From: Candidatus Goldiibacteriota bacterium HGW-Goldbacteria-1
GTDB taxonomy: Bacteria; Oederibacteriota; PGYV01
Direction: 5' to 3'
Assembly (NCBI GenBank): GCA_002839855.1
Contig: PGYV01000006.1
Span: forward strand, 16,367 to 80,366
DNA length: 64,000 bases
The position numbers and the translations under genes are program-made. Below the pieces are notes generated by a model, which saw only the letters and a list, made by a program, of their open reading frames with translations, did not search any database and was not told the origin of the DNA. Numbering within the stretch: the stretch's first letter is position 1; each line of letters starts with the position of its first letter. Shown one piece after another: positions 1,753-55,074 of this stretch.

Positions 1753-3321
1753 ATGAGAAAAAATGAAAAATTAATAAGTGATAAAGGTTTGATCCCCGGC
1801 CCGCATAATCAACAAAACAAACGAAAGAGGAGTTCGCTGACTTTGAAAATAAAATTTTTAAACTTCATAATACCTGTTTTCTTATGTGTTCTTGCCTTTT
1901 CAATCGTTCTGCCGAACGCAGATAAATCAATTTGGTATGATGAAGCCTGTACTGTTGATTTTTCAAGGCTTGTTCCGTCCGGACTGACAGAAATGCTTTC
2001 ATCCGGCAATAATCTTCCGGCTTACTATTATTTTATGAGTGCATGGACCTTTGTTTTCGGAATTAGCGAGACAGCACTCCGGTTACCCGGGATATTCTTT
2101 TATATAATTTCAACTGTTCTTGTTTTTTTATTCGGGAAAAACCTTTTCAAAAACACCGGTTTTGCTTTCGTTTCAGCGCTTATATATCTTCTTTTGGAAA
2201 TAAACACAACAAACGCAGTCAGTGCCAGACCCTACGGAATGCTGGCATTGCTAAGCTTACTTTCGTTAATGCTATTTCATAAACTTTTTATCGAAAAAGA
2301 ATACAGTCTTGTCTCAGGCATATCTTTTGTGGCTGTAAATATTGCAGGTAGTTTTACCCACATTTGGTTTTTCTTTTCTGTGTTGCCGCAAATTATTTTT
2401 TATCTGAAAAGCAACAAAATCACAGGTAAACGTTTTCTTGTTCTGTTTTTGAGCTCTTTCACTCCTTTTATTTTATTATGGAGCCCTATATTGCTGGCTC
2501 AAATGCAAAACGCCAGCAATGATTGGATGTTATTTCGTGGAGACGATCTGAGAGTGACAATTCAGTATTTCACAGCCGGAAAATTAAATACTATCTTCAT
2601 GTTTTTTTTGATACCTGTACTTGCAGGAGTTTTAGTTTCAAGACTGAAAAAAGATACTGCCAAAATTAATTACTTTTCCGAAAATGCTTCTTTTCTTTTT
2701 ATTGTTATCACTTTCAGTCTGCTTACCCCATACCTGATTTCATATTTCAGGCCGATATATGTCGTTGACCGCGGCCCTATTATTGCCGCAGCTCCATTTG
2801 CCCTGCTTCTTGGTTATCTTGGAAGTATTTCATATAAACCTTTTTTTTATCCGGCCGCAGCCTACTTTTCGATTTTTTTGTATATTACGCTGTATTCATC
2901 GCGCGCTGTTTATTTCGATACCGACAAAATAATAACAAAGGTAATAATTTCAAACTCCCGCAACGTTCGGCAAATAGTTTTATTTAACGAATCACAAAGA
3001 CAGGTAAAATACTATTTTAACAGGCTGCACTTTAATGGAGAGGTTTCGTTCTCAGATATACCCCTTATACTGTCTTATTCAAATATCTCCGAGTGGCGGA
3101 AACTTCCTGACAATATCCAAAATAAACTTCTTAGTGAATATACAAACAGTTTGAACAGAGATGGAAATCTGCTTTTTGTTTTCAATGATGCTGATGTTGA
3201 AAAAGAAAACTTTGCTCCGATATTTGAAAGCCTGAGAAAAAGCCGCAACATTCTCAGCATCAAGGAAATGAAAAGTTTAAGTTTAATACTTATAAACTTC
3301 GGGCCGCCGGTTAAATACTAA
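1753..3321 (+). CDS. polytopic membrane protein, GT-C (ArnT/PMT_2-like) glycosyltransferase family candidate
   Basis: The 522-aa protein has at least 10 hydrophobic helices. A WYDEA motif sits in the first loop, matching the DE motif of GT-C fold glycosyltransferases. Confidence 0.45.
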   Translation: MRKNEKLISDKGLIPGPHNQQNKRKRSSLTLKIKFLNFIIPVFLCVLAFSIVLPNADKSIWYDEACTVDFSRLVPSGLTEMLSSGNNLPAYYYFMSAWTFVFGISETALRLPGIFFYIISTVLVFLFGKNLFKNTGFAFVSALIYLLLEINTTNAVSARPYGMLALLSLLSLMLFHKLFIEKEYSLVSGISFVAVNIAGSFTHIWFFFSVLPQIIFYLKSNKITGKRFLVLFLSSFTPFILLWSPILLAQMQNASNDWMLFRGDDLRVTIQYFTAGKLNTIFMFFLIPVLAGVLVSRLKKDTAKINYFSENASFLFIVITFSLLTPYLISYFRPIYVVDRGPIIAAAPFALLLGYLGSISYKPFFYPAAAYFSIFLYITLYSSRAVYFDTDKIITKVIISNSRNVRQIVLFNESQRQVKYYFNRLHFNGEVSFSDIPLILSYSNISEWRKLPDNIQNKLLSEYTNSLNRDGNLLFVFNDADVEKENFAPIFESLRKSRNILSIKEMKSLSLILINFGPPVKY

Positions 3322-3778
3322 TGTCCGCCTTTACTGTCTTTGCATTAACTTGGTTATGCTGTCAAAACCCGCTTACAGACTTTAGTATAATAGGAATAAG
3401 ATGAGCGGTAAAGAAAATTAACGCTGTAAACAGGGTTTGGCCGGATATTATAATTTTTTATAACCTTTGACGGCGTTTATTTCATGATGGCAGAGAACCT
3501 TTCAAAAAGGTATCCGGATACCGCTACAAACTGATTAGATATATTATGTAACCGGTTAATTGACCGGTAAAATAACCGTAAATGATTAGACACATTAACT
3601 TATACTGGAATAGTATCCTTTGACGTAGTCATGGCTTACTGTCCCTGTAAAATCCTTTGTTTTCGTGGGGGATTGCTTAATTTTACATAACGCAATAAAC
3701 ACCTTCTATTAAAATAATGCATTTATACAAACCTACAAATTCCAGAATATAAAATCTAACAATCCCAACATACAAATG

Positions 3779-3811
3779 TCCCTAAAGGCACAAATAGTGC
3801 CTTTAGGGACA
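3779..3811 (+). other. perfect 14-bp-stem hairpin in a ~590-bp AT-rich non-coding region
   Basis: GTCCCTAAAGGCAC-AAATA-GTGCCTTTAGGGAC lies about 100 nt upstream of CDS 3914. Confidence 0.6.
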
Positions 3812-3913
3812 TTTATTCAAAATAAATATTACATAATACCTATGTTTTGACAGTTTTTTGGAAGGAATGAATCTTGCTTATTGTTATATGTAAATTGCCA
3901 GGAGGTGAAAGTT

Positions 3914-4291
3914 ATGGAACCGGACTTCAATTTAGAGCTTGAACAGATGATAGCCAACAAGCACAGAGTTCATGTAAGTGAAGAGGTTCGCTATAAAATC
4001 CTGGACAGGGAAGATGAAGAGTTTCAGGGCCTTTATATGGAAGCAAGGACAATTTCAATAAGCAAGAAAGGGTTAATTCTTCTTATGAAACACAGGGTAA
4101 AACCCGAAGATGCAATGATTGTTGAACTGATACTTGGTGCGGAAAAACGTAAAATTAAGACCTGCTGTGAGTCAATTGGCTGCAGAAAGGAAAGTTTTAA
4201 CAAAGGATATGAAGTGGAAGTGCAGTTTTTGATCTTAAAAGATGAAGACAAAGAATACATTGAACATTATATGAAACAAAACAGCGCCTGA
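3914..4291 (+). CDS. small cytoplasmic protein, possible PilZ-like domain
   Basis: RBS GGAGGTG precedes the ATG. KHRVHV and ISISKKGLIL segments weakly resemble the PilZ RxxxR / DxSxxG motifs. Confidence 0.3.
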   Translation: MEPDFNLELEQMIANKHRVHVSEEVRYKILDREDEEFQGLYMEARTISISKKGLILLMKHRVKPEDAMIVELILGAEKRKIKTCCESIGCRKESFNKGYEVEVQFLILKDEDKEYIEHYMKQNSA

Positions 4292-4359
4292 CTTCTGTGG
4301 ATTATCACAAGTAATTAATAGTGCATGTGATAATCTGCAGAAATGCAAAAGCTCTTTTC

Positions 4360-4415
4360 GCGTCCCTGCCTAATTCACCGCCCCCCCCGAAAAAGGCAGG
4401 GACGCGCTTTTTAAT
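4360..4415 (+). terminator. rho-independent terminator downstream of CDS 3914..4291
   Basis: A 12-bp stem GCGTCCCTGCCT / AGGCAGGGACGC is followed by a TTTTT run. Confidence 0.6.
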
Positions 4416-4482
4416 TATGCTTTTAAATCATAATCTTGCGCCGCCGCCGCTATTGTTGTATAATAAATTTAAAGAGGTGGCT

Positions 4483-5040
4483 ATGGCTTTTAAATGTCCG
4501 CGTTGTAATCAGGTAAACAAAGATGGAAGCGATACGTGCTGGAGCTGCCATACCATATTTGCCACCGGCGAAAAAAAACCGCTTGATATGAAAGTTAAAA
4601 AGTCAATTTTCTCAACGTTAAAAAGGGAAAAGGTTGATTTTAAAGTGGTTTCATCTGATTTTCCCGGGACAATTGCATTATATTTTTCAGCCCCTCCCAA
4701 AGAACGTTATATTCTTGCAAGGCTTACCGTATTTTTTCTTGTACTAAACCTTTTTAATAACATTATTTTTTATTATTTTAAAGGCGTTACACAGGCACAG
4801 GAAAATGCGGGCAGCATAACGACTTTTCTGGTAGTTTTTATAGCTATATACAGCGCTGTTATCTGTATAGCGCGGCTTAAAGCTGACACGGATTTTCCCG
4901 GAAAAACAGCTTACTTTTTTTACCTGTTTTTTATTCCTATTTTCGCTTTTGGTTATATTGTCCCGTCTTATTACCCGAATTTCAGGTTATTTCTGGAAGG
5001 TGCGCTGCTTATATGGAATGCGGTTCTGTTAAGGCCATAG
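4483..5040 (+). CDS. zinc-ribbon membrane protein (hypothetical)
   Basis: RBS AGAGGTGG precedes the start. An N-terminal CPRC...CWSC zinc ribbon is followed by 3-4 hydrophobic helices. The ORF-track start at 4321 lies inside the upstream terminator and is unlikely to be the true start. Confidence 0.5.
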   Translation: MAFKCPRCNQVNKDGSDTCWSCHTIFATGEKKPLDMKVKKSIFSTLKREKVDFKVVSSDFPGTIALYFSAPPKERYILARLTVFFLVLNLFNNIIFYYFKGVTQAQENAGSITTFLVVFIAIYSAVICIARLKADTDFPGKTAYFFYLFFIPIFAFGYIVPSYYPNFRLFLEGALLIWNAVLLRP

Positions 5041-10473: not shown

Positions 10474-10478
10474 ACGGC

Positions 10479-10583
10479 GGCTAGGCAGCTAGGCAGCTAG
10501 GCAGCTAGGCAGCTAGGCAGCTAGGCAGCAAGGCGGCAAGGCGGCAAGGCGGCAAGGCGGCAAGGCGGCAAGGCGGCAAGGCG
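10479..10583. repeat. tandem octamer microrepeats, left arm of a composite intergenic element
   Basis: (GCTAGGCA)x6 followed by (CAAGGCGG)x7. The reverse-complement arm, (GCTTCCCA)x4 + CCGCCTAGCTGCCTAGCTGCC, lies at 10871..10925. Confidence 0.85.
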
Positions 10584-10870
10584 GGCGCACCTTTTAAGGT
10601 GCGGTTGTAGCGAGCATGCGAAGCGGAAATCCCGGCAATGAAGCGAGCTTGCAATCTGAAGCGGGCGGGACAGTTGGTTGTTAATATGAAGAATATTTTA
10701 AATAGAATAGAACCAGTATAAAACGGATTAATTATATAAAAACATAATCAAAACAACGCGGGCTAAAGACCCGCGTCTACCAAGGCACAAAGAAACTTCC
10801 AACCATCCAACCATCAAGGTGTCTTAAATATATTCCGTGCTTTTATCATCTATCTCTGATATGTCTTATA

Positions 10871-10925
10871 GCTTCCCAGCTTCCCAGCTTCCCAGCTTCC
10901 CAGCCGCCTAGCTGCCTAGCTGCCG
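10871..10925. repeat. reverse-complement tandem microrepeat arm, right end of the composite intergenic element 10479..10925
   Basis: CTTCCCAG is repeated 4 times, then CCGCCTAGCTGCCTAGCTGCC. This is the reverse complement of the left-arm motif. Confidence 0.85.
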
Positions 10926-11082
10926 TATTTCTCCCTTATTTCATTGCCAATCTATCCCTGTTTTAGTATAATAAACACCGTTTCAGAATTGCACTTTGAC
11001 CGAAACTTTAAACGCTTAAATTTGTCAAAATAATTGTTAAATGTGATAACCGCAAAAAGAATAATTTAAGGAGAAACGGCAC

Positions 11083-14000: not shown

Positions 14001-15168
14001 ACATACGAACACAAATACCGATACTGCGACAGCCACATCCACTTTCACAAACACTTATACGGCAACAGATACCGCCACAAGCACATATACTTATACGCAT
14101 ACCAGTTCACATACCGCCACAAATACACCGGAGCCTCCCACAAATACACATACCGCAACTGATACCGCGACATATACTTATACGAATACAAATACATCCA
14201 CTTTCACATATACGCATACACATACGGCAACGCATACCAATACGGAAACCCCGACAGACACAAATACCGCAACAATTACAAACACTCCGCCGCCGGGCAG
14301 CACAAACACGCATACTTTCACAATTACATCAACTCCGTCGGATACTCATACCGCCACATATACTTATACTTACACATTTACAAATACGGCAACGCAGACC
14401 TATACCGAAGTGCCTCCGACCTTTACAGGTACTTTCACGGAAACGTTTACGTTCACATACACTTCAACTTACACGCACACGGCAACAATAACAGATACGG
14501 TTCCGCCGGGAAGCACGTCCACTAACACCCCCACGCAAACGCTGATTCCGTCAAATACCCACACGCATACGGCCACTGAAACAAGTACTTATACAAACAC
14601 TTATACCGCCACAAATACTTTTACGGAAACAAACACGGTTCCGCCGGGAAGTACAAACACTAACACTCCCACAGAAACGCTGATTCCGTCAAACACTGAT
14701 ACCGCTACACATACACACACGCATACGTTTACAAATACATACACGGCTACAAGTACACCTGTTATTCCGACTGATACGCATACGGCAACGGCAACGGTTC
14801 CGGCGCCCACAGCCACGATTACAAATACTCCCTCTTCCATTATCGCGGAAGACGCAAAACAGATAATTTCTGAAGTTATGATTTATCCAAATCCTTATAA
14901 TTCTAAAATTTCTCCGGCAGGACCCTTTGTCATATTTAAACTTGCGAAGAATGCCGCAGGAGTGTCGCTTAGAATATATTCATCTTCATTCAGGCTTGTG
15001 AAAAATATTGAATTTGAAGGAGTATTTACGGCAGGGTTGAACAGGGCGCATACCCGCGCAGAAGATTTTAAAAATCTTTCAAACGGCACTTATTATTTTG
15101 TCCTGACAGCGGACGGTGCATCAGGAAAAGCCAAAAGCAAAGCGGATAAGATGATTGTCTTAAAATAG
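11083..15168 (+). CDS. secreted GH9 endoglucanase with two malectin-like CBMs, a ~300-aa alternating-Thr region and C-terminal sorting domain
   Basis: A TTG start follows RBS AAGGAGAAA. GGWHDAGDYGKY marks the GH9 domain. Two INCGG / NCGGAAY...ERWG domains resembling malectin/CBM57 lie at about 12850-13320 and 13516-13945. A (T-X)n region lies at 13950-14830. The C-terminal domain lies at 14850-15165. Confidence 0.85.
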   Translation: MKKLTLLTIAVLFITVNIFSAQNNAIRVDMEGYRTLGNKYVILVGNSATSFTVKTVSGGTTVFTGTFSAAVADAASGDSVKTGDFSALTTPGEYYVAVTGLGESYNFRISDTIHTDTLTTLMRGFYGQRCGASVTLTHRGTTFTHGACHLNDGTYAGSTGLNGTKNTTGGWHDAGDYGKYALNCGVTNGELLLMYEKYYDALEHINLGLPYSGGALPDVLTEIKYNLDWHKKMQHTNGGVFHKLSNGFPQNIMPTSDTDTRYIFAISSAATADFAAVMAIAARVFDMYDAAYAAECLTAAQNAWAFLQANPNIVPAGGFTDGSMGGIYGDTDDSDERLWAAVELFNTTGEAQYNTYVAAHYTDRTLTLMSDLGDDWKELHPVAYMSYMQSKQPSVNTTVVNAMKTLFQPQVNTFRNRVQSTNGYKFVLNSGDYYWGSNSVALNRAIRLVAASEIFGDDTYKDAAEEVLHYILGRNAMNKSYLTYVGEVYTNQPHHQPSAADGITPPWPGILAGGPNEYYDTIGAPAKCYVDDAGNYTSNEVAINWMAAYAYVLAAFVPTPGPTNTPTNTPTSLCHPLTCTFTQTSTPTVTATPINVLRVNVAGAQVTTGGNVWLADKAYIAGSWGYNTPANTGDRTALGNIVNNTTDDVLYLTERWGAALSYTFDLADGWYLVTLKFNEMFVNSANARLFNILLEGQVVESSFDVYAVNNSQAYAVDRSYPVLLTDGKLNIDLTQVTEMCILNALRIESYYPPTATYTYTPLNTNTFTNTATATATFTNTSTSECYPLTCTFTNTNTYTSTQTPTNTPVPTPIRVNCGGAAYLDGAGNTWAADYGFTGGTATSVTDAIAGTTDDTLYQSERYGNPSYTFTVPNGYYDITFKFAETWFNAAGERIFDVSVEGVTVIDNLDLYVSAPGAMRAYDVIISNVLITDGQINITASSAVDSANFRAIAIIPAGPAPTFTYTNTVPPTNTHTNTNTDTATATSTFTNTYTATDTATSTYTYTHTSSHTATNTPEPPTNTHTATDTATYTYTNTNTSTFTYTHTHTATHTNTETPTDTNTATITNTPPPGSTNTHTFTITSTPSDTHTATYTYTYTFTNTATQTYTEVPPTFTGTFTETFTFTYTSTYTHTATITDTVPPGSTSTNTPTQTLIPSNTHTHTATETSTYTNTYTATNTFTETNTVPPGSTNTNTPTETLIPSNTDTATHTHTHTFTNTYTATSTPVIPTDTHTATATVPAPTATITNTPSSIIAEDAKQIISEVMIYPNPYNSKISPAGPFVIFKLAKNAAGVSLRIYSSSFRLVKNIEFEGVFTAGLNRAHTRAEDFKNLSNGTYYFVLTADGASGKAKSKADKMIVLK

Positions 15169-15485
15169 CAGCTAGGCAGCTCAGCAGCTTAGAAGCTCAG
15201 TTTAGATCTGGTAGGCGCACCCTTCAGGGTGCGGTTATAGCAAGCCTGCGAAGCGGAAATCCCGGCAATGAAGCGAGCTTGCGAGTGAAAGCAGGCGGGA
15301 CAGTTGAACTTGGTTGTAAACAAAACGACTTCTGCCTCTGTTATAACGACGTTATTACTATGCGTACGAAACAAAAAAAATCGCAACAATTAAATCTAAA
15401 CAGTACGGGATAAAAACCCACATCTACCAATACCAAACCTTCAGAGCCGCCAAGCCGCTTAGCTGCCCAGCTGCTTAGCTGCAGT
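15169..15485. repeat. composite palindromic intergenic element with microrepeat arms, hairpin A and a conserved 70-nt module
   Basis: Left arm GCAGCTAGGCAGCTCAGCAGCTTAGAAGCTCAG. Hairpin A lies at 15209-15240. The module GCGAAGCGGAAATCCCGGCAATGAAGCGAGCTTGC lies at 15249-15283. Right arm GCCGCCAAGCCGCTTAGCTGCCCAGCTGCTTAGCTGCAG. Confidence 0.8.
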
Positions 15486-15609: not shown

Positions 15610-18546
15610 ATGAAAAAATCTTTAAACGCCTTATTAATGGTGTTTATCTTTATTCCTTTATTATATGCCACGCCTGTATCTGAAAACGGCGAGCTTAAGC
15701 TTGTCGGAAATCAGCTTTCCAATTCATGCGGAAATCCGGTCCAATTAAAAGGAATGTCCAGCATGGGGCTTCAGTGGTACGGCGTTGGTCAGTGTCTGGA
15801 TACCGCCACTATGGATTATATGGTTAATACAATTGGAATTGATGTATTCAGGGCTGCTATGTATGTTGATGAAGGCGGATACCTGACTGATAAAACGAAA
15901 TACTCTAATATGGTAAATACAATTGTTGACTGGTGCGAAGCACGGGGTATTTATGTGATAATTGACTGGCATATGCTTACGCCGGGCGATCCTAATGCTC
16001 ATATTAATGAGGCCAAAACTTTTTTCGCGGAAATGTCATTAAGGCATAAAGATAAAAAGCACGTAATATATGAAATCTGCAACGAACCTAACGGCGTTTC
16101 GTGGTCAACTGTTCAGACTTACGCGAATATCATAATCCCCATAATCCGCGCAAATGACCCTGACACCATAATAATAGTAGGTACGCCTAACTGGTCACAG
16201 CTTGGTACTGATGTTGCAAATAATAAATTAAACTATACAAATATTATGTACACGTTTCATTTCTATGCCGCATCACATTCCACCGGCTTAGTTACGCCCT
16301 TTACCGATAAACTTCCAATTTTCTGTACAGAGTGGGGCATAAGCGATGCAAGCGGAAACGGCGCAATTGACACTGCAAACGCCACGAATTTTTTAAACAT
16401 ATTTGACGGAGCCAATACAGGCGGTCAGAAAATAAGCTGGGCAGGGTGGTCGTGGTGTGATAAAAACGAATCTTCTGCGTATCTGCAGGCAGGGTCGTGC
16501 CTCAGCAACCCGCCAAGGTTTACAACCGCGGGTAACTATATAATAGGCAAGATTCAGACGAATCCGAATAACTGGACAGCGTGTAACGCGCAGACTCCCA
16601 CTTTTACAAAAACAATAACACCGGGCGGGCCTACGTTTACACCCACCAGAACGCCCACTCCTTTTGCAAGTTTGTTGGTCAACTGTGCCGGGCCGCAGTA
16701 TACAAATGCGGAAGGCGTATGGCAGGCTGATAAAGCTTACGCGGCAGGAAGCTGGGGATATGTGGGTGGTACGGTTGTAAGCAGGGGAAGTGTGGCAATT
16801 GGCAATACCACAGATGACACGCTGTATCAGACTGAACGTTATGCGGACCCGGTGGAATACAGGTTTGATATTCCTAACGGGACATATTCGGTTACGTTTA
16901 AAATGTGTGAATCTTATTGGGGAAACACGACAGGCGGAAACGGAAGCAGGATATTTGACATAGTAGCGGAAAACAATACTGTAGTAAACAACCTTGATTT
17001 GTACGCGGTGGCGGGATATAACAATGCTTATGACGTAACGGTCAATATTACCGTAAATGACGGGCAGCTTAATATATCAATGCCTGCTGATGTTGATAAC
17101 GGGCTTATTAACGCGATAAAAATTGTAAACGCGGCTTCTGTGACAAACACTCCCACAAGGACCAATACGTTTACCGCCACAAGGACGCATACAAATACGT
17201 TTACAAAAACATTCACGCACACTTTTACAAGGACGAATACTTTTACCGCGACAAGGACAAACACCTTTACCGCGACAATTACTCATACTTTTACAGCCAC
17301 AAGGACAAATACGCCCGTACCTCCCACAAACACGTTTACAAATACGGCTACAAGGACATATACGCCGGTACCTCCCACAAACACATTTACAAATACGGCG
17401 ACAAGGACATATACGCCGGTACCTCCCACAAACACATTTACAAATACGGCTACAAGGACATATACTCCTGTGCCGCCAACAAGCACATTTACTGACACAG
17501 CCACAAAGACAAATACGCCCGTTCCGCCTACAAACACGTTTACTAAAACGGCTACAAATACTGCAACAAACACATTTACAAATACGGCAACTAACACAGC
17601 CACAAAAACAAACACGCCTGTGCCGCCGACAAACACATTCACGAACACTGCCACAAAGACAAACACGCCGACTGTTACGGAAACACCTATCCCGGGCAGC
17701 ACTGATACGTTTACACATACAATAACAAATACATTTACAAAAACAAATACGTTTACAAATACGCATACTGCAACTGATACATTTACGCCTGTTCCGCCCA
17801 CAAGTACGTTCACAAACACGGCGACAAATACATTTACAAATTCCAATACCGCCACCAATACAAATACCGCCACAATTACAAACACGCCTCCGCCGGGAAG
17901 CACAAATACGTTTACGCACACAATAACAAATACATTTATAAATACGGCCACAAATACGTTCACGTCAGTGCCGCCGACAGCCACGCATACATATACAAGG
18001 ACGTTTGTAAATACGGCCACAAACACTTTCACGTCAGTGCCGCCGACAGCCACGCATACATTTACAAGGACGTTTATAAATACGGCCACAAATACGTTCA
18101 CGTCAGTGCCGCCGACAGCCACGCATACGTTTACCGTTTCTTATACTGAAACAGCCGTTGTTTTTACCCCCACATATACCTTTACGGCAACCGTAACTGT
18201 TGTGTTTACAGGTACGCCAACGCCGGTTGCTACTGAAGGCAAAAAAGCCGAAATTAAAGATGTTGATGTTTATCCGGTTCCTTTTGGAAAAAAAGGGAAC
18301 GTATATTTTGAATTTACCCTTACCAAAAGCATGAACTCCGTTGAGCTGAAGATTTATTCTTCGGGTTACAGGCTGTTAAAGAGAGTTGATGTTTCTTCGG
18401 CATGCGTTCCCGGAAGAAAGAAGAGCGCAATAGCGGCAGGGGAATTTGTAAATCTTGCAAATGGGACGTATTATTTTGTACTGGAAGGTAATAGCGCGGA
18501 CGGATATGTGAGAAGCAGGACAGAGAAGATGATAATTTTAAAATAG
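15610..18546 (+). CDS. secreted GH5 endoglucanase with a malectin-like CBM, a ~360-aa T-X/PVPP repeat region and C-terminal sorting domain
   Basis: RBS AGGAG precedes the ATG at 15610. GH5 hallmarks are [11 protein letters not shown] and FCTEWG. The malectin-like domain reads [10 protein letters not shown]...TERYADP. The repeats [17 protein letters not shown] occur 3 times. The C-terminal domain lies at 18240-18543. Confidence 0.85.
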
Positions 18547-18707
18547 AGGCTTGGATGCTTTGAGGCTTGGATGCTTTGAGGCTTGGAAAGCTTGGCAGCT
18601 CGGCTTGAGTCTTTTGTCATGGTAGGCGCACCCTTTAGGGTGCGGCAGTCAGCTGTGGTTAGGCATTTGTTGTCCTGGTAGACGCGGGTCTTTAGCCCGC
18701 GGCAGTT
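18547..18707. repeat. intergenic microrepeat arm plus hairpin families A and B
   Basis: (GAGGCTTGGATGCTT)x2.5 lies at 18547-18610. Hairpin A GGTAGGCGCACCCTTTAGGGTGCGGCAGT lies at 18621-18650. Hairpin B GGTAGACGCGGGTCTTTAGCCCGCGGCAGTT lies at 18676-18707. Confidence 0.85.
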
Positions 18708-18849: not shown

Positions 18850-21800
18850 ATGAAAAAAGGGATACTGAAATTACTTACAGGGCTTTTAATATTAATCCCG
18901 TCGTTTATATTCTCTGCGGATTCTCAGGTTAGGGTAAATTCTGTGGGATTTCTTCCTGCAAATGACAAAGGGGCGTCGGTCTCTACGGCGGTTTCGGGCT
19001 TCAACAAACGCTGTTGTTTTTTCTTCAACCGCCGCTAATATCACCGGGCCGGTTAATGCAACTGATTCCAATGAAACTGTTTATAAACTTAATTTTACCT
19101 CTTTTACAACACCCGGCACCTATTATGTTGATGTGACCGGCGTCGGCAGGTCGGTTAATTTTACTATAGCGGATAATGTATATAATGATGCTTATATTAC
19201 TTCTTATAAATCCATGTATTACTGGCGCTGCGGAATGGCTGTCAGCGCTGTTACAAACGGGCAGACTTTCGGGCACGGCGCGTGCCATACAAATGACGCG
19301 AATCAGAACTACATAGGATTTGGAAGCAATATTAGGGACGGAAAAGGCGGCTGGCATGATGCCGGAGATTTTAACAAATATATAGTTAACGCAGGCATAA
19401 CAATGGGTATGTTCTTCATGGCGTGGGAACATTACGGAAGCGTACTGAACAATATCCCGCTTACATACATGCCGAATACAGTTGCAGGTTATCCGGAGTA
19501 TAATGTATCGGCGTATCCTGATTTTCTGAAAGAATTAAGGTGGGAAATGGACTGGGTTTTAAAAATGCAGTATCCGGACGGTTCCGGTAAAGTTTCCCAT
19601 AAATTAAGCACCCTGAATTTCGGCGGTTTTATAATGCCGGAAACAGAAACCGCAACCCGCTATTATGTTGACTGGGGTTCTGCGGCTACCGCTGATTTTG
19701 TGGCGATGTGCGCAATGGCTGCCAGAATTTTCTACCCGTATGACCCTGTGTACGCGCAGAAATGCCTTGACGCGGCATGGGTAAGTTATAATTTTCTGCG
19801 CACAAATACGGCGAATAAAAACCCGGATCAGTCCGCATTTACAACCGGAGGATATGGGACAACAGACAGCGACGACAGGCTATGGGCTGCAGCTGAAATG
19901 TGGGCCACGACAGGTGATGCCAATGCAAAGACAGACCTTGATAACAGGGCAAATGCTTATTCCGATAAAACGGATGAGGATTTTGACTGGGGCAACGTAA
20001 AAAATCTGGGCATGTACACGTATTTGATGTGCACAAGGACAGGCAAGAACACAGCTATTGTAAATGATATACAGGCTGATTTGATTGCCGATGCAAACAC
20101 TATAGTTACAAAGAAAAATAATCACGCGTATTCAAGGCCTTTGGGCACAAATTTTTACTGGGGCTGCAATGGTTCGGTAGCAAGGCAGACAATGCTGCTT
20201 CAGATTGCCAATATGGTGTCGCCCAACGCTAACTATGTTAATACAGCGCTTGATTCGCTTGGATATCTTCTTGGAAGAAACCCTTTCAGGCGTTCATATG
20301 TAACGGGAATCGGGACAAGCCCTCCGATGTACCCGCATGACAGGACGTCCGGCGCGGATGGTATAACAAATCCTGTGCCGGGATATCTTGTAGGCGGTTC
20401 TAACGGAACCAACAGCGGCGACCCCGCTTTAACCGCAATGCCGGCAGGCCTTGGTGCCGCTATGTACTGGACAGATAATCAGGATTCATATGCCTCAAAT
20501 GAAATTGCTATAAACTGGCAGGGAGCGCTTGTTTACGCGCTTGCGGGTTTTTGTAAAAATCCGTCAGTACCCACATTCACGCCCACTAATACAAATACGC
20601 CCGACGGCCCCACATATACTTTCACAAATACGGCTACGCAGACAAATACGTACACGCCGTCGCATACATTCACGGTTACACCCACTGTTGTATTACCTGT
20701 GGCAATTTGTTCCGGGCCATCTTTGATAATTGACGGAAGCCTGGATGAAGCTTTCTGGCAGGCAGGGGAATGGACTGAGGTTTTAAAAGTGGTTACGGGT
20801 ACAATGCCTGCGCCCGTATCCGCGCGTTATAAAGTGCGGTATGATGATTATGGTTTTACCCTTGGCGTGCAGATTACTGACAGCGCGCTTTACAATGATT
20901 CCGGCACAGAATGGTATAACGACGATTCGGTTGAACTTTACCTTGATGTTAATAATGATAAAAGCACAACATACGACGCTGATGATTATCAGTTCAGCGT
21001 GCGCTACGTCGAAGGTATAATAAGGGAACAAAGCGGTGATCCCGGAAACGCTTACGCTGCTTACGGCTATATTGTGGGAGGTTACACGGTTGAAATTGAT
21101 GTGCCATGGGCCGATTTGGGAGTTACCCCTTTTGAAGGCATGGTAATGGGTTTTGACGTAGGCGTAAATTATGACCAGGACGGCGATGAAAGGGAAGGTG
21201 TTTTGATGTGGAACGGCACAAGCACCAACTGGCAGAACCCTTCAAATTTCGGCGAAGTAACCCTTGGCGCGCCGTGCGGTGCCGCGGAAACGCCCACGCA
21301 CACTTATACCAACACATCCACTTACACGCATACTGCGTCATACACATCAACCTTTACAAACACAGCAACAGTGCCTACAAACACGTTTACAAGCACAGCA
21401 ACAGTGCCTACAAACACGTTTACAAACACAGCAACAGTGCCTACAAACACGTTTACAAGCACAGCAACTGCACCTACATATACTTTTACGAGCACAGCAA
21501 CTGCACCTGCAAATACGTTTACGAGCACAGCAACTGCACCTGCAAATACGTTTACGAGCACAGACGTTTACAAATACGGCAACTGTTCCGACAAATACTT
21601 TCACTAACACGGCAACTGTACCGACAAATACATTTACTAATACTGCAACAGTCCCTACAAATACGTTTACAAGTACTGTAACAGTCCCTACAAATACGTT
21701 TACAAGTACAGTAACAGTATCTACAAATACATTTACAAGCACAGCAACAGCGCCGACAAATACTTTCACTCAAACTCCAACAATTCCAACGCCTACATAT

Positions 21801-22139
21801 ACTGTAACCCCTGTGATACAGGAAGGGGATAAACAGAAGATTACGGATGTAATGGTTTTCCCGCACCCATATAACGCTTCCAAAAATCCTTACGCCGGCA
21901 TAAAGTTTAACCTTTCCAAAAGCGCGGCTGTGGTAAAGATAAGATTATATTCATCAGCTTTCAGGTTGTTGGAAGAATCGGACATAGCAAAAAACTGCCA
22001 CCCGGGCAGTAATATCGGCGCGATAAGCGGAAGAAGGCTGTCAACAATGTCCAACGGGACGTATTATTTTGTCCTGATCTCGGAAGATAATGCAACAGAG
22101 GTCAGAAGTAAAGTGGATAAGATGATAATAATGAAGTAA
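18850..22139 (+). pseudogene. GH9 endoglucanase - CBM9-like - T-X repeat - C-terminal-domain gene interrupted by two frameshifts
   Basis: Three consecutive ORFs in different frames together give a complete protein. The pieces are a signal peptide + Ig-like N-terminus (frame 1), a GH9 domain with GGWHDAGDFNKY plus a CBM9-like domain IDGSLDEAFW (frame 2), and TFTNTATVPTN repeats plus the C-terminal domain (frame 3). The shifts fall at about 18990-19000 and at 21563/21564, where one 33-nt repeat unit is truncated to 16 nt. Confidence 0.7.
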
Positions 22140-22140: not shown

Positions 22141-22355
22141 GGTTAGAATGAAAACCTTATCCCATAACCTGTTATCCCATATCCCATAAATAAAGGCATA
22201 CATCCGGCCGCGTCTTTACCTATGGGATAGGTGAATGTTGGTATTATCAAATTTCGAATCTCGAATTTCGATTCTCGATACACTTCCGTCCCTCACGCTT
22301 TAAACCGTCCCTCATGTTTTCCTAGCTGCCTAGCTGCCTAGCTGCCTAGCCGCTT
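22141..22355. repeat. intergenic repeat cluster
   Basis: TTATCCCATA / TATGGGATA inverted pairs. An (AATTTCGA/ATCTCGA) tandem at 22249-22280. A CCGTCCCTC module. (CCTAGCTG)x4 at 22322-22354. Confidence 0.75.
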
Positions 22356-25871: not shown

Positions 25872-26130
25872 ACGCTTGGATGGTTAGATGGTTAGAGGCT
25901 TGGTTAATTCTTATGTCTTGGTAGACGCGGGTCTTTAGCCCGCGTTGTTTTGATTTGATTATGTAAAAACGGACCAACTGCCGCGGGCTAAAGACCCGCG
26001 TCTACCAAGACTAAAACAAACCGACCCTCTGCCCATCCAACCTTCCGACCTTCAGTTTTTACTTCCGTCCCTTCGTTCCTCATGTTTTTCCTAGCTGCCT
26101 AGCTACTTAGCTGCCAAGCTGCCGCCTTTT
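25871..26130. repeat. composite palindromic intergenic element
   Basis: Left arm GCTTGGATGGTTAGATGGTTAGAGGCTTGG. Hairpin B at 25919-25948 and its inverted copy at 25981-26008. Right arm CCATCCAACCTTCCGACC...CTAGCTGCCTAGCTACTTAGCTGCC. Confidence 0.8.
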
Positions 26131-26216
26131 AAACCATTTGACACTTTTGCCCTAATTTTGTATATTGTTTAAACGGTTAAACAATACGCCTTTATTAATA
26201 TTATCGGGAGAAAACT

Positions 26217-29200: not shown

Positions 29201-30932
29201 AGCCACGTTTACCGCCTCAATCACGCCCACGCGGATTGATGACCTTTTTATTGACTGCGCGTCCAATGATAATTACACAGACGGGCAGGGAAATATCTGG
29301 CTTGCGGATCAGGCGTATGGCGGCGGCAACGCGTGGGGATATGTCACAGCAGGTTCCACAAATGACTGGTACACCGGCGAGATTACCTTAACAAATGATG
29401 ACGAACTGTATCAAAGCGAAAGGTGGTCGGGCAGCGGCAATACACTTTTACAGTATAACGCGGATACGGGAAATGGGATGTTTGAAGTTGAACTTCATTT
29501 TACAGAAGGGTTCTGCACGGCTGCGGGATGCAGGCAGTTTAATATCGCCCTTGAATCGCTTACAGTTGAAACCAATCTTGATATATACGCGGAAACAGGC
29601 GCGCAGCGTGCGGCGCTTGTAAAAACTTATTACGTTGAAGTTACAGACGGCACTTTAAATATTAATCTTACTCAGGGAAGCGCGGACTGGCCGCTTATTA
29701 ACGCGATAAGGATAAGTACGTATTATCCTCCCACAAACACGCCTACAAATACAGTCCCCGAGACACCCACATATACTTTCAGCGCCACAAGTACGTTCAG
29801 TAATACGCATACATATACAAATACACAAACTTATACTCAGACTCCCGTATCTACAAGCACTTATACTGATACCGCCACGCACACTTACACGGACACATAT
29901 ACTGAAACCGCCACAAACACACCTGTAAATACAGACACAAATACAAACACCGCCACATACACGCATACATACACGGTAACTGATACAGCCACAGACACGC
30001 ATACAGCAACCATAACTTATACCCCTTCGGATACGGTTACAGGCACACCGCCGTCAACGCACACGTTTACGGACACGCCCACAGAGACTTACACATATAC
30101 ATTCACACAGACTTATACTGAAACTCCTGCAGACACGTTTACGCACACCCCTGAAAATACCAATACAAATACACCCCAGGATACTTTCACACATACTTAT
30201 ACAGCCACATACACTTATACTTCAACAAATACAAACACAAGCACAGAAACATATACGCCTACTATTACGAATACCTTTACAGACACAATTACACCCGGCG
30301 GCCCCACGCTTACGTTTACTGATACGCCGACAGAAACCGGCACACCCACGCACACACATACAAGCTCAAATACAAACACCGCAACAAATACAAACACAGT
30401 TACTGATACGGCGACAAATACAGCAACTGATACCGTAACCCATACAAATACATACACCGCAACATTTACCGCCACATACTCACAGACACCGTCATATACA
30501 TCATCACTTACAGAAACTCCTGTTTTTACGCAGACACACACGTTTACTTATACGGCCACAGAAACGCCTGTCTTTACAGCAACACCGACATATACAAAGG
30601 TTCCCGCGGACAAACAGGAAATTACAGAAGTACTGCCATACCCAAATCCGTTTAACCCGTCGCGTTATAACTATGTAAGGATATCATTTAAAATAGCGCA
30701 GCCGGATACAGAACGCCTTTCGTTGAGGATATATTCATCGTCATACAGATTAATAAGGGAAGTATCGTACGAACGTGATGCCCTTACGCAGATTGTGAAC
30801 AGGGGATACATACAATACGAATCCAAACACCTTGAAACTTTATCCAACGGCACATACTATTTTGTCCTTTTAGCCGGAGAACAGGGCGACGAAACAAGAA
30901 GCAGGGTGCAGAAGATTATAATTATTAAATAG
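26217..30932 (+). CDS. secreted GH116-like (GBA2/DUF608-type beta-glucosidase family) enzyme with two malectin-like CBMs, a ~290-aa alternating-Thr region and C-terminal sorting domain
   Basis: A TTG start follows RBS GGGAGAAAA. The N-domain motifs PIGGFGAGTITW and LFPFAWVNYSG resemble the GH116 N-terminal domain and are followed by an (alpha/alpha)6-like region. Malectin-like domains IRVNCGGAAH...TERWG and IDCASNDNYTDG lie at about 28565-29010 and 29240-29710. The C-terminal domain lies at 30600-30929. Confidence 0.6.
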   Translation: MLRRTLFTVMVLLVFITGLRASSIIPTQAWSRDVGASGYTDGAPIGGFGAGTITWKNNGDFYLSRLDIGAGDETGTFTAANTNCKFFMYQKPASGAATVQRLDSANLGTGQAVYNSLFPFAWVNYSGSRFNVKAKVTQYSPLIPEDYQRVSYPVGVYEWELTNPTTQNYDAAIMLTWENPYGSSASLVTDGNYTGLVLNKAGTGTPTLETQGEFCLASLSSANVTVTRMSAANRAALETDFSTDGALSNTVGSNTIGAVAFKVTLAPGQTVRIPIILSWDIPITQSQYNAKWYRKYTQHFNRLGTNSWAIAREALADRSVWEQKLDEWIHRITDNPNYPEWLKSMLLNEMYIYFTAGTYWEAGAASGQADNPSENMFSHLESYIYDFYGTSDVRFYGSWALFMNWPEIDKQCIKQFSDSVYNNRSDRPAGLGTTAHDIGSRADVFTRWNAYVYRDSTNWKDLNSKLVLMVYRDWHLTGRTDSAFLDYCWQPCKIAMEKTATQDADGDGLPDSNGIDQTYDDMDLTGDTSYCGGLYLASLLAAKEMALAKGETALAQTYQDRFDFAQPNFESQLWTGQYYRIDTDSHDPTRIMSDQLCGQWYNKALGLPGIVSDANAVSSFQKIYDNNFAKFGNGTHGVINVMNANGTIDTTSSQTEECWVGTSWGVAAGMIHQGMEAQADDIGQSLLNTIWNTGQYWFRTPEAFRVNLTIPRAFYYMRATAVWAVKHAYDSVHPVPTYTPSPTATNTNTWDPAYPTYTFTNTATATNTSTYTHTATVTPTFADIRVNCGGAAHNDGTHIWAADYGYTAGTAAGPSGAVAGAPAGQGTLYQTERWGMSAYTFNNIPFGTYDITLKFAETYSGAYSVGARVFDVFIEGTRVLDDFDIFAEAGASTALDKVFSAVQVSDGVLNITFSASVDNANITAIEVVLVSQMPTSTHTSTATRTPTATSTYTATDTQTPDPLWTKTFTYTYTDTATNTATYTYTNTYTITNTPTATFTASITPTRIDDLFIDCASNDNYTDGQGNIWLADQAYGGGNAWGYVTAGSTNDWYTGEITLTNDDELYQSERWSGSGNTLLQYNADTGNGMFEVELHFTEGFCTAAGCRQFNIALESLTVETNLDIYAETGAQRAALVKTYYVEVTDGTLNINLTQGSADWPLINAIRISTYYPPTNTPTNTVPETPTYTFSATSTFSNTHTYTNTQTYTQTPVSTSTYTDTATHTYTDTYTETATNTPVNTDTNTNTATYTHTYTVTDTATDTHTATITYTPSDTVTGTPPSTHTFTDTPTETYTYTFTQTYTETPADTFTHTPENTNTNTPQDTFTHTYTATYTYTSTNTNTSTETYTPTITNTFTDTITPGGPTLTFTDTPTETGTPTHTHTSSNTNTATNTNTVTDTATNTATDTVTHTNTYTATFTATYSQTPSYTSSLTETPVFTQTHTFTYTATETPVFTATPTYTKVPADKQEITEVLPYPNPFNPSRYNYVRISFKIAQPDTERLSLRIYSSSYRLIREVSYERDALTQIVNRGYIQYESKHLETLSNGTYYFVLLAGEQGDETRSRVQKIIIIK

Positions 30933-31420
30933 AGGCTTGGACGCTTAGATGCTTAGATGCTTGGCAACATAGAGTCCGCGCGTTTTTGCTTTTGCTCTTG
31001 TAGGGATAGCGCTCCCGCGCTGTCCGGCTCTTTTTGTTTGGTATTAAATGTTTGGTAGGCGCACCTTTTAAGGTGCGGTAGTTGATTTTTTCTTTATGTT
31101 CTGGATCTTTTGTCCTGGTAGACGCGGGTCTTTAGCCCGCGGCAGTTATCTTGTCTTGGAACTTGTAGGGACGGCGTTCCCTCGCTGTCCGGTTCTTTTG
31201 TTGTCTGGTATTAAATGTTTGGTAGGCGCACCTTTTAAGGTGCGGCAGTTGATTTTAATCTGTGAATTAAATCAAAACAACGCGCCCTGAAAGGACGCGG
31301 CTACCACTGCCAAAACAAACTGACCCGCCGCCCCTCGCGTTTTAAACCGTCCCTCCGTGCATCTGTCCCTCCGTCCCTCGTGTTTTCCCAAGCCTCTAAC
31401 CATCCAAGCTTCCAAGCCTC
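30933..31420. repeat. composite palindromic intergenic element containing a duplicated ~95-nt unit
   Basis: Arms GAGGCTTGGACGCTTAGATGCTTAGATGCTTGG (30933-30969) and CCAAGCCTCTAACCATCCAAGCTTCCAAGCCTC (31385-31420). Hairpin A at 31054-31083 and 31220-31251. Hairpin B at 31116-31148. The unit CTTGTAGGGA..CGCTGTCCGG.TCTTTTGTT..GGTATTAAATGTTTGGTAGGCGCACC occurs twice. Confidence 0.8.
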
Positions 31421-31437: not shown

Positions 31438-31499
31438 TTGTCTGAACAAATAATTTCTGTTGACATCAGGCGGGATAATATATATACTTGTCCGAACAA
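31438..31499 (+). promoter_or_regulatory. sigma70-like promoter of the marR-OMF-RND operon flanked by two TTGTCYGAACAA palindromic boxes (candidate MarR operators)
   Basis: -35 TTGACA at 31460-65, a 17-nt spacer, -10 TATACT at 31483-88. TTGTCTGAACAA lies at 31438-49 and TTGTCCGAACAA at 31488-99. Confidence 0.45.
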
Positions 31500-40019: not shown

Positions 40020-40255
40020 ATTGTTATAGTTTCGTCACCCGCATTGTCCGGCTCTTTTGTTTGGTAGGCGCACCTTTTAAGGTGCGGCAGTTTATCTTGT
40101 CTTTGAACTTGTATTAATATCACGAATGCCTGCGATGTCTCAACATTCACGCTATCCGGCTCTGTTTGCTCTTGTATCTTCCAATCATCCAACCCTCCGA
40201 CCTTCTGACCCTCAGTTTTCCTTCCGTCCCTCCGCACATCCGTCCCTCTGATCTA
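40020..40255. repeat. intergenic repeat cluster
   Basis: Hairpin A at 40062-40092. The CCAACCCTCCGACC / CCGTCCCTCCG module at 40181-40250. Confidence 0.75.
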
Positions 40256-45271: not shown

Positions 45272-45850
45272 GCAGCTTGGCAGCTAGGCGGCTAAGCAGC
45301 TAGGCTAAAAAAAAATAAGGTTTGGTAGGCGCACCCTTCAGGGTGCGGCAGTTGGTCTTGTTTTATTTCAATCTAAACACCGCACCCTAAAGGGTGCGGC
45401 TACCAAACCAAAGCAAATAACGGATTGTATATAAAAATGTTTCAGATGTGGTAGACGCGGGTCTTTATCCCGCGGCAGTTAATGTGTAAATCCCGGTAAT
45501 TTCTTCGCTATAGCTTAATTGCTTAACCCGCTTATGCTTAATATTTATAATGCCATTTGTGACTATAATCACTGTTTTTTCATCTTTATTAAGTATAATT
45601 GTTATAGATGTAGGGGCGGTGTTTTAGGCAGAGATGGTGAGGTAAAAGCGGCGGATGAAAATCCGCCGCTTTTATTTTTAGCAAATATGTTTTTTAAAGT
45701 AGAGACGCAACATGTTGCGTCTCTACTTTAAAATATAAAACCCGCACCCTAAAGGGTACGCCTACCAGATCCATGCCAAACCTTCCGTCCCTCCGGCCAT
45801 CGTGTTTTTATGCCAAGCCTCCAACCATCCAAGCCTCTAAGCCTCCGCCT
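45272..45850. repeat. composite palindromic intergenic element
   Basis: Arm (GCAGCTWGGC)n at 45272-45305. Hairpin A at 45323-54 and its inverted copy at 45379-45408. Hairpin B at 45448-80. A terminator-like hairpin at 45645-80. Palindrome C at 45697-45730. Inverted hairpin A at 45741-68. Right arm CCGTCCCTCC...CCAAGCCTCCAACCATCCAAGCCTCTAAGCCTCC at 45781-45850. Confidence 0.8.
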
Positions 45851-47487: not shown

Positions 47488-47692
47488 TTTGTGTACTTGT
47501 TTTCTTTTTCTAATGTAGAGACGCAACATGTTGCGTCTCGCTTTTATGTGTGAATTTAAATTCTTGGTAGACACGGGTCTTTAGCCCGCGGCAGTAGATT
47601 TGATTCTGTTTATATCAGAAATCGCTCCTACGCTGTCAGCGTTTTTACAATGATTTGATAAGGGTAGTTGTTTAATTTTTCGCCAAAAATAG

Positions 47693-48133
47693 GTGGAGTT
47701 TATGAATAATAAAAATTCTTTAATTGTTTTCATTTCTTTTGTGTTTTGTTCTGTGTTTAGTGTCGTGTTTTTTTATCTTGTTAAAGGGGGATATGATTCA
47801 AACTCGGCGATTCGTTCATACTTTCTACTTGGCCAGTTGATGTGCGTCCTGATGATTGTCTATGCTGATGTTACGTATTTCTCGAATATTGACAAAGACA
47901 ATATGTTTAGATTTTTATTTCATCAAGTTATTATTTCTGTTACGTCGTTAATGAATTTAGTAATCATTCAACATTATATGGGAGTAATACTATTGTTCAA
48001 ACTACCGGTCGGATTTTTAATAATGATTAACATACTTATATTAACAACTGTTTTAGCTGCTATTTTATTTTCTCTTGAAAAAATATTCTTAAAATTTTGG
48101 GTTAAAGATAAAAGTGACACAATTCATTATTAA
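47693..48133 (+). CDS. hypothetical small membrane protein
   Basis: Four hydrophobic helices. No recognisable motif. Confidence 0.35.
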   Translation: MEFMNNKNSLIVFISFVFCSVFSVVFFYLVKGGYDSNSAIRSYFLLGQLMCVLMIVYADVTYFSNIDKDNMFRFLFHQVIISVTSLMNLVIIQHYMGVILLFKLPVGFLIMINILILTTVLAAILFSLEKIFLKFWVKDKSDTIHY

Positions 48134-52090: not shown

Positions 52091-52311
52091 ACAACAAACT
52101 ACAAAATCTAGCGGGATAAAGACCCGCGACTATCAACGCTCTTATGTTTGACCGAGCTGCCGTTCTTCGTTTTTCCCAAGCATCTAACCATCCAATCTTC
52201 CAAGCATCCATATTGCATCTACTTTCAAAATCCTATTGACAACAAATTGCTAATCTGACAAAATAGTGATAATGGCATAGTAGTTCCACCAAACAAAACA
52301 GGAGAAACACA

Positions 52312-55070: not shown

Positions 55071-55074
55071 GAAC

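Follow-up and report, generated by a model that had tools for sequence, protein, structure and literature searches.

We analysed a stretch of 64,000 nucleotides (the window) from Candidatus Goldiibacteriota bacterium HGW-Goldbacteria-1 (contig PGYV01000006.1, positions 16,367 to 80,366), in which most of the larger gaps between genes are occupied by repeats. The explanation that we favour, with moderate confidence, is that these spacers are mosaics like the bacterial interspersed mosaic elements (BIMEs) and the doublets of repetitive extragenic palindromes (REPs) known as REPINs (REP doublets forming hairpins). In such mosaics, REPs mobilised by REP-associated tyrosine transposases (RAYTs) would lie within dispersed, polarised modules of octamer repeats (the arms), and these modules would have been copied between loci and remodelled locally. 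The architecture is real and non-random; its core is already explained by the REP/RAYT system, and its frame is a variant of a known yet unexplained repeat class.

Repeat elements are present in 11 of the 17 gaps longer than 60 bp (spacers S1-S11), and six of these spacers are full in having arms on both sides, i.e. S1, S2, S5, S6, S8 and S11. For comparison we used contigs from related Goldbacteria genomes and metagenomes, denoted as L-numbered loci (e.g. L036, L047 and L052). The metagenome-assembled genome (MAG) JAKQNO01 matches the window at the nucleotide level through the repeats only and is unusable for orthologous spacers. The MAG assembly JAFGWA01 holds both the closest relative of the window that we fetched and the RAYT-bearing locus L052.

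REP hairpins and their transposases

Two hairpin families, already noted in the sequence-only reading of this DNA, form the cores of the spacers. Hairpin A (GGTAGGCGCACC-loop-GGTGCG, read as GGTAG-GCGCACC-loop-GGTGCG) and hairpin B (GGTAGACGCGGGTCTTTAGCCCGCG, read as GGTAG-ACGCGGG-TCTTTAG-CCCGCG) each have 10 copies in the window, all of them in spacers, and a generic hairpin pattern gives 10 matches in the window against 0.3 expected. GTAG-type REPs consist of an unpaired GTAG head and a GC-rich palindrome (PMC3733652). Both hairpins are short imperfect palindromes with an unpaired GTAG at one end, and both occur as many dispersed extragenic copies, mostly 3' of open reading frames (ORFs) and between genes of the same direction or convergent genes. 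Exact copies of hairpin B, about 40 in number, were also found in MAG JAKQNO01 on contigs without coding similarity to the window.

Cognate RAYT genes flanked by their own REPs, i.e. REPtrons, were found in related genomes, at L036 for family B and at L052 for family A. The ORF of 154 aa at 4283-4747 of L036 lies between inverted REP B copies (4214+ and 4787-) and matches the Pfam family Y1_Tnp at 1.2e-8. Among PDB structures it is matched best by 4ER8 (TnpArep, the REP transposase of E. coli), with the HUH and Tyr motifs in alignment, and it scores 95.1 bits on the NCBIfam model REP_Tyr_transpos ('REP-associated tyrosine transposase'), the cut-off of which is 80. The second RAYT, in L052 of JAFGWA01, is 64% identical to the L036 protein, has four REP A copies around it and scores 91.8 bits on the same model (cut-off 80). 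As judged by these sequences, hairpins A and B are GTAG-type REPs, each family being dispersed and having its own RAYT/REPtron in related Goldbacteria. The sequence-only reading had spoken of conserved hairpin cores; the cores are real, but it had missed that they are mobile REPs with cognate RAYTs. Mobilisation by RAYTs, which is established for this transposase family, would account for the REP layer here.

The REPs are combined in several ways. REPIN-like inverted doublets were found at 25915-26011 (30 nt, 100%) and 45319-45409 (30 nt, 93%), and many REPs in the window are single or arranged head to tail (S3, S6 and S11). Besides the REPs, other pieces recur, namely the perfect palindrome C (GTAGAGACGCAACATGTTGCGTCTCTAC), a conserved linker on the 5' side (GGTTTAGATYT) and the modules D and E, which make the spacers BIME-like mosaics. 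The orientation of the REPs shows no regular alternation.

Palindrome C has GTAG within its stem and is frequently located directly 3' of stop codons (45692-45733, 47516-47540, 51888-51911 and 52040-52090), with further copies in the relative L047. Module E (GCGAGCATGCGAAGCGGAAATCCCGGCAATGAAGCGAGCTTGC...), of about 70 nt, follows REP A at 10604-10676 and 15234-15308 and is conserved across species (L021, L015, L009, L034 and L074). At 47566-48210 an inverted REP B pair with the heads outward surrounds a hydrophobic ORF of 146 aa (47693-48133) without a Pfam match; the geometry is that of a RAYT REPtron with a different gene, and L047 has the same arrangement at 3261-3927. At one orthologous site (M48 peptidase / RsmB), L052 has the RAYT with flanking REP A (1600-2560), and L012 has a 23S-rRNA-intervening-sequence-protein gene (4120-4750; Pfam 7.5e-17) with inverted TAAGC/TAGGC arrays around it. 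Exact REP B copies also occur in L013 (MWBL01000135.1), which is labelled 'Firmicutes bacterium ADurb.Bin300' and is near-identical to L037 around these copies; it is probably a Goldbacteria contig in the wrong bin.

Integron attC sites are imperfect palindromes after stop codons, too. This identity was rejected because the genes here are large enzymes with their own promoters rather than cassettes and because the RAYT link accounts for the hairpins. No known structured RNA was matched in Rfam at gathering thresholds anywhere in the window.

Families, polarity and turnover of the octamer arms

Tandem Repeats Finder (TRF) gave 19 period-8 arrays in the window; 20 shuffles that preserve the dinucleotides gave 0-4 arrays each (mean 1.6). 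From the stop codon (at 10473, 15168, 18546, 25871, 30932, 45270 and 55070) to the beginning of the left array the distance is 0-3 nt, which bears out the earlier statement that a block of tandem repeats follows the stop codon. A loose purine-rich consensus, ~ARGSWYRG, fits all octamers. The commonest array length is about four units, found in 37 of 68 arrays overall and in 11 of 18 in the window, and the arrays are not free-running microsatellites.

Aligning each left arm with the reverse complement of each right arm, we found three arm families in the window. The alpha family (CAGCTAGG-like) supplies the left arm in S1, S2 and S8 and the right arm in S1, S2, S4 and S5; the beta family (AGGCTTGG / ATGGTTAG-like) supplies the left arm in S3, S5 and S6 and the right arm in S6, S8 and S10; the heptamer family is confined to S11. 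Four of the six full spacers have the same family on both sides, and S5 and S8 are mixed. Pairings across loci score on par with those within a locus (32 for the left arm of S1 with the right arm of S4, 30 for the two arms of S1). The claim that each spacer has arms of its own sequence that match each other does not stand, given three shared families, equal cross-locus scores and the mismatched arms of S5 and S8. Arm matching within spacers is above chance, with p = 0.022 by exhaustive permutation for the window alone and p = 0.0002 with MAG loci added, the latter value being inflated by the mixing of genomes.

The outer arms are reverse-complementary in S1 (56 nt, 82%), S6 (36 nt, 86%) and S11 (67 nt, 78%). 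The S5 arms pair weakly through an inner block (22 nt, 77%), the outermost right block at 26090-26128 not being the complement of the left arm. The S2 arms are ~70% alike, under the threshold of the tool for complementarity, and no complementarity was detected between the outer arms of S8 (45272-45850), which belong to different families. Hence the reverse-complementary outer arms that had been ascribed to these spacers in general hold for about half of the full ones. Compared with shuffles, whole spacers fold much better (z = -9.7, -10.2 and -5.0), and their arms are paired in the folds. Many spacers can fold as large palindromes in the way proposed.

The arms recur in a defined form. The beta blocks at S6, S8, S10 and the MAG locus L033 have their unit variants in identical order. 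The delta block CCGTCCCTCCGTGCATCCGTCCCTC-RTGTTTT was found repeatedly, in the window as well as in the MAG and in three relatives, and two species share a related family of 41-48 bp at loci that are not orthologous, with 91% identity over 133 bp. By sequence comparison, the arms are discrete dispersed modules of ~33 nt, each with four degenerate units of 8 nt (of 7 nt in one spacer), and these modules belong to a few families shared by many loci and at least two species. The CCGTCCCTC / CCAACCATCCAA module, which had been listed as a regular part of the construction, is present in spacers but missing in S2 and S11. When metagenomes were scanned with a 20-nt beta-module pattern, 43 matches were obtained where ~30 are expected by chance, so most are chance matches, and about a dozen have extended arrays. 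We also considered the octamer units as degenerate copies of the REP heads (GGTAGACG / GGTAGGCG) and rejected this origin, the best-phase match having p = 0.12 against shuffled units and p = 0.41 against shuffled targets.

Some other arrays were observed. An AT-rich heptamer array (AATTTCGAATCTCG / TCGAATC) at 22250-22278 recurs beside CCGTCCCTC modules at L092 1341-1446 and L009 6841-6874. Purine-first octamer-array hairpins of the TTGGATG / TGGAAGR type occur at L084 461-602, L076 725-782 and L071 699-872, in metagenome contigs of 52-68% G+C, and no GTAG hairpin matching REP A or B was found on these three contigs. For the higher-GC contig L071, the nearest named homologue is 40% identical and comes from an Elusimicrobiota MAG.

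The arms have a strict polarity. Among neighbouring arrays, the purine-rich one precedes the pyrimidine-rich one in a ratio of 9:0 by an automatic criterion. Since an arm pair is an inverted repeat, this polarity is the same on both strands and is therefore a property of the hairpin, not of the gene direction. Whichever strand a gene is on, the purine-rich block on its sense strand starts 0-17 nt past its stop codon, and the pyrimidine-rich block is located shortly before the next promoter. In the 40 kb scanned, the three best sigma-70-like sites (11/12 positions) are 10-40 nt past the right arms of S1, S5 and S6, where the sequence-only reading had placed the promoter of the next gene.

Orthologous spacers change fast. 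In relatives with an IclR protein 76-85% identical, the IclR-GH5 spacers are 81-98 bp, ordinary terminators are found elsewhere, and the 20 kb of synteny contain no REPs and hardly any arrays. The closer relatives, defined by an IclR at least 90% identical, differ piecemeal. The orthologues of S11 in L047, L049 and L050 have REP A and a compact heptamer hairpin, then T8-T9; relative to them, REP B and, 5' of REP A, a long heptamer array are gains of the window. In L049 and L050 the stop codon is followed by another palindrome, of 2+4 units in L049 and 3+3 in L050. At S10, where a conserved promoter lies just downstream of the pyrimidine block, this block is of the beta family in the window and of the delta family in three relatives. 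At S8, the alpha left arm is orthologous in L047, the 37-nt beta right arm is found only in the window, and L047 has a delta module expanded fourfold as a 40-bp tandem. Even within the population of the window there is a difference between two samples, in that the heptamer arm of S11 lacks one 21-bp unit in sample L002. By these alignments, modules are gained, replaced and resized locally and fast among close relatives, with plain terminators in the distant ones. An in-situ process that makes palindromes had been suggested; the rapid local change agrees with it (the 21-bp unit, the unit numbers in L049 and L050, the family swap at S10), but the change acts on pre-existing dispersed modules.

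Composition of the individual spacers

The window holds genes for large glycoside hydrolases in a same-strand row; these enzymes are secreted, belong to GH9, GH5 and GH116 and have malectin or CBM9 modules. Its other genes encode RND pumps, MurJ, the IclR regulator and housekeeping functions. Proteins identical to those of the window are deposited for a Candidatus Goldiibacteriota MAG under PKL914xx. The first spacer, S1, begins 1 nt after the stop codon with a purine-rich (R) arm made of (GCTAGGCA)x6 then (GCAAGGCG)x7 (10474-10584, +; TRF period 8, 13.6 copies), which pairs with 10871-10926. The array has overwritten the GTAG head of a REP A (10580-10603, +), which now reads GGCGG. Module E (GCGAGCATGCGAAGCGGAAATCCCGGCAATGAAGCGAGCTTGC...; 10604-10676, +) follows (found again at 15234-15308 and, by blastn, in the related MAG at L021, L015 and L009), then REP B (10757-10781, -) and the pyrimidine-rich (Y) arm, (AGCTTCCC)x4 then AGCCGCCTAGCTGCCTAGCTGCC (10870-10925, +), beyond which lies a promoter-like site (10944-10972). 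The alpha R arm of S2 (15167-15209, +) overlaps the stop codon and is followed by REP A (15210-15233, +); the alpha Y arm of this spacer (15445-15485, +) is preceded by a degenerate inverted REP (15403-15428).

Single arms are found in S3 and S4. S3 has a beta R arm (GAGGCTTGGATGCTTT x2.6; 18546-18612, +) without a Y partner, then REP A (18621-18644) and REP B (18677-18701) head to tail (18621-18701, +). S4 has CCGTCCCTC (delta) modules and then an alpha Y arm (CCTAGCTG x3.8) without an R partner (22285-22352, +). In S5 the beta R arm (25872-25910, +) precedes the REPIN-like doublet at 25915-26011, in which REP B(+) at 25920-25944 and REP B(-) at 25982-26006 give 30-nt arms, 100% complementary and 37 nt apart; the Y blocks (26010-26128, +) consist of epsilon/delta modules and an alpha Y arm at 26090-26128, with a promoter-like site at 26138-26166.

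The TAG stop codon before S6 is part of the first unit of its beta R arm (30930-30967, +). The core at 31054-31305 comprises REP A(+) at 31054-31077, B(+) at 31117-31141, A(+) at 31221-31244 and a variant REP(-) at 31281-31305, with module D copies interspersed (31004-31025 and 31169-31190). A delta module (CCGTCCCTCCGTGCATCTGTCCCTCCGTCCCTC-GTGTTTT) and a beta Y arm at 31385-31420 close the spacer (31310-31420, +), and a promoter-like site lies at 31460-31488. S7 has REP A (40063-40086) and Y modules (40175-40255) and no R arm (40063-40255, +).

S8 opens with an alpha R arm (45272-45306, +), also present at the orthologous site in L047. Its core (45319-45767) contains REP A(+) at 45324, A(-) at 45381, B(+) at 45450 and A(-) at 45743, together with an ordinary intrinsic terminator at ~45645-45679 and palindrome C at 45692-45733. 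A delta remnant and the beta Y arm of ~37 nt at 45813-45850 follow (45775-45850, +), the latter missing in the L047 orthologue and not the complement of the left arm. S9 consists of REP B(+) at 47566-47590 and REP B(-) at 48186-48210 around the ORF of 146 aa (47566-48210). S10 (51888-52210) contains copies of palindrome C together with an intrinsic terminator (~51922-51957), a degenerate REP B(-) (52110-52134) and a beta Y arm (52176-52210), with the conserved promoter beyond. S11 combines an R arm of the heptamer family (ACAGGTT / ACAGGTG / ACAAGTT, period 7 or 21; 55073-55165, +), REP A at 55185-55208 and REP B at 55230-55254 (55185-55254, +), of which REP B is missing in the orthologous spacer of L047, L049 and L050, and a Y arm of the TGTAACT family (55270-55333, +), then T8.

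The genes between these spacers have some features of their own. An ORF of 1616 aa at 40420-45270, within the cellulase array and between two repeat-filled spacers, has no Pfam family at E <= 0.001. The ORFs at 18962-21607 and 21264-22139 (18962-22139 of the window) are in different frames and overlap within a period-33 coding repeat (21353-21763); they are probably one GH9-CBM9 gene split by a frameshift or by a miscount of repeat units in the assembly. Coding tandem repeats with periods of 12 to 138 occur in the C-terminal halves of the big enzymes (14490-14756, 17227-18134, 21353-21763, 29929-30022 and 44623-44784). Their sense strand is A/C-rich with a strong negative GC skew, and they probably encode Thr/Asn/Pro-rich linkers.

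Explanations for the spacers and known repeat systems

In the mosaic explanation, RAYTs would bring REPs by single-strand transposition into the hairpin-prone DNA immediately 3' of genes, in many cases between two arms. The arm modules would be copied from locus to locus by recombination or transposition, their unit number might change locally by replication slippage, and exchange between the two arms of a spacer might keep many pairs matched. Where they are co-transcribed with the upstream gene, the arms and REPs would form one long stem-loop in the 3' untranslated region, by which the transcript might be ended or stabilised and the next promoter shielded. Most of the spacer DNA is probably tolerated selfish sequence in the sole space left free by selection.

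A stricter version, in which a purine arm and one REP form a single mobile unit, was rejected. REPs lie in both orientations between arms, arm pairs without a REP between them occur (L014, L036 and L071), and REPs without arms are common. The REP heads are oriented toward the arms in a ratio of 20:8 when both are present, which is a bias only; such counts of association between REPs and arms are themselves biased, the JAKQNO01 loci having been picked for containing REP B.

That selection of loci is one of several points that weigh against the mosaic explanation. There is no RAYT gene within the window, and both RAYTs are known from related genomes rather than from the window's own genome. No target-site duplication is visible at the S8 module insertion, the one insertion delimited. 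TTTT follows within 14 nt of 28% of the pyrimidine arms against a background of 13%, and RNA folding by strand, compared for signs of selection on the sense RNA through G-U pairs, is better for the sense strand in 8 cases, better for the antisense strand in 3 and equal in 3, without a consistent difference. Copying, slippage and arm exchange alone do not explain the polarity, the four-unit preference and the stop-codon adjacency; these features hint at selection or a directed mechanism, and a purely selfish or neutral model does not predict them.

The arms could instead be a selected bidirectional terminator or insulator, in which a stem-loop with a 5' purine and a 3' pyrimidine arm ends or blocks transcription between independently expressed enzyme genes and the REPs are passengers in the loop. 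From the sequence features a terminator or insulator role of the arms is plausible, and we hold it rather unlikely that this role accounts for the spacers. The arms lie between the stop codon and the best promoter-like sites, and the matching of arms within spacers is above chance. In the ordinary terminators of relatives, an A-tract with a purine arm precedes a pyrimidine arm with a T-tract, and their polarity is thus that of the arms. The intrinsic-terminator form, a stem-loop and a U-tract, is seen at S11, which ends in T8, and at its orthologues in L047, L049 and L050, where the hairpin is compact and T8-T9 follows, and the delta module has a conserved RTGTTTT tail. However, since a T-tract follows only 28% of the pyrimidine arms, a standard intrinsic-terminator role is not general, and canonical terminators were not favoured, given this weak enrichment. 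Moreover, S8 and S10 already contain a canonical terminator, partnerless single arms are common (S3, S4, S7 and S10), the arms of S5 and S8 are mismatched, and spacers of 80-100 bp suffice in the relatives.

A broader proposal is that the polarised four-unit octamer modules, together with the heptamer arrays of Xanthomonas and Nostoc, form a distinct class of elements at gene 3' ends, with the purine arm 5' and the pyrimidine arm 3', a start of the purine arm at the stop codon and, in most cases, four units. Such a class would occur in several phyla and have a directed origin or a selected function (a bidirectional transcription stop or insulator), and its loops would be preferred sites at which RAYTs insert REPs. 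We regard this proposal as tentative and doubtful. The arm pairs without REPs hint at it, and so do the purine-first octamer hairpins in contigs of 52-61% G+C without GTAG hairpins of the REP A/B type (L071 and L084).

Still less probable is a non-autonomous transposon of the foldback type, in which the arm pair is a subrepeated terminal inverted repeat carrying variable cargo (REPs and small genes) and the spread of the element explains the recurring families. Modules of ~33 nt with identical unit order at several loci and in several species would fit, as would the 37-nt S8 module present in the window and missing from L047. The cargo within arm pairs is varied and includes the 23S-rRNA-intervening-sequence-protein gene at L012 4268-4630, with the RAYT at the same site in L052. 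Against this, no target-site duplication and no transposase besides RAYT were found, the two arms of one element differ in unit order and number, single arms are fixed in orientation to genes, unlike random insertions, and one orthologous site (S10) has swapped its family and kept its flanks. Nor do the elements look like MITEs (miniature transposable elements with inverted repeats), which have terminal inverted repeats, target-site duplications and near-uniform copies; the copies here vary in unit order, unit number and cargo, in agreement with the sequence-only reading that they are not copies of a single MITE.

Elements forming G-quadruplexes or i-motifs, as proposed for the GGGNATC heptamers of Xanthomonas and Nostoc, with selection for four G-tracts per array, are very improbable here. 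The four-unit preference is as in Xanthomonas, the position rules are the same (PMC4692102), and the MAG arrays (GAGGGACR)n have GGG every 8 nt. The arms in the window, however, have no conserved G-tracts, their units GCTTAG, GCTCAG and GGTTAG having AG for GG, and the heptamer arm of S11 has isolated GG at best; the quadruplex explanation was set aside for this reason. An artefact of short-read metagenome assembly across repeats is hardly credible: the contigs come from k-mer assemblers and unit numbers vary between samples, but the spacer sequence is identical in independent ENA, Logan and NCBI assemblies, most arrays are shorter than the assembly k-mer, and several species have the same architecture.

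Compared with known systems, the core of the spacers agrees with the GTAG REPs, REPINs and REPtrons (Nunvar 2010; Bertels and Rainey 2011, PMC3116915; Di Nocera 2013, PMC3733652) in having a GTAG head with a GC-rich palindrome, dispersed extragenic copies near the 3' ends of ORFs, inverted doublets, RAYTs flanked by their own REPs and a separate RAYT per REP family. It differs in its host, Goldbacteria being a candidate phylum outside those listed for GTAG repeats in PMC3733652, and in that the REP clusters are framed by polarised octamer arrays. In the open-access literature we found no description of arrays framing REP clusters or of REPs in Goldbacteria. REPs and RAYTs have been studied mainly in Proteobacteria, and two REP families, each with a RAYT, in this uncultured cellulolytic phylum widen the known range. 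The BIMEs of E. coli are mosaics of REPs and fixed linker motifs. Our spacers, too, are built from short dispersed modules in variable combinations (REP A, REP B, palindrome C, D, E and arms), but the module sequences differ and short-period tandem arrays form an outer layer here. Some foldback elements and MITEs have subrepeated terminal inverted repeats, and our spacers share with them the inverted ends of tandem subrepeats around variable cargo; they differ in having no target-site duplication, no matching transposase and a fixed polarity to genes.

Two types of heptamer arrays are related to the frame. In Beggiatoaceae, cyanobacteria and Bacteroidetes, TAACTGA direct repeats of one sequence, rarely inverted, are mostly located immediately upstream of start codons (PMC4679880). 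They are likewise intergenic short-period arrays missing from the same spacers in close relatives, whereas the arrays here are inverted, have several sequences and are located at stop codons. The GGGAATC heptamer arrays of Xanthomonas are intergenic, with 70-75 pairs per genome that are always convergent (inverted) (Rehm 2015, PMC4692102). Those on the sense strand lie at most ~50 nt from the stop codon, and those on the antisense strand are upstream of an ORF. The arrays prefer four units and vary in length between close species, and no function has been assigned to them (PMC4692102).

Our arrays share with the heptamers of Xanthomonas and Nostoc (GGGAATC / GGGGAYT) the intergenic location, the short period, the stop-codon adjacency, the inverted pairs, the four units and the length variation. 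Cyanobacterial short tandemly repeated repetitive (STRR) heptamers are kin of this G-rich heptamer array class. The arrays here differ in having a period of 8 except in S11, in the coexistence of several families and in the REPs that usually lie between the arms. Their units have no conserved G3-4 tract, GGG being found only in the GAGGGACR arrays of the MAG, and the quadruplex explanation is therefore not transferable from Xanthomonas. As the unit number varies between samples, the arrays could serve as strain markers in metagenomes. The match in array rules (polarity, start at the stop codon, four units and fast turnover) suggests one phenomenon across distant phyla, and the Goldbacteria arrays offer a second, independent system for asking whether such repeats are terminators, insulators, structure-forming DNA or by-products of hairpin replication.

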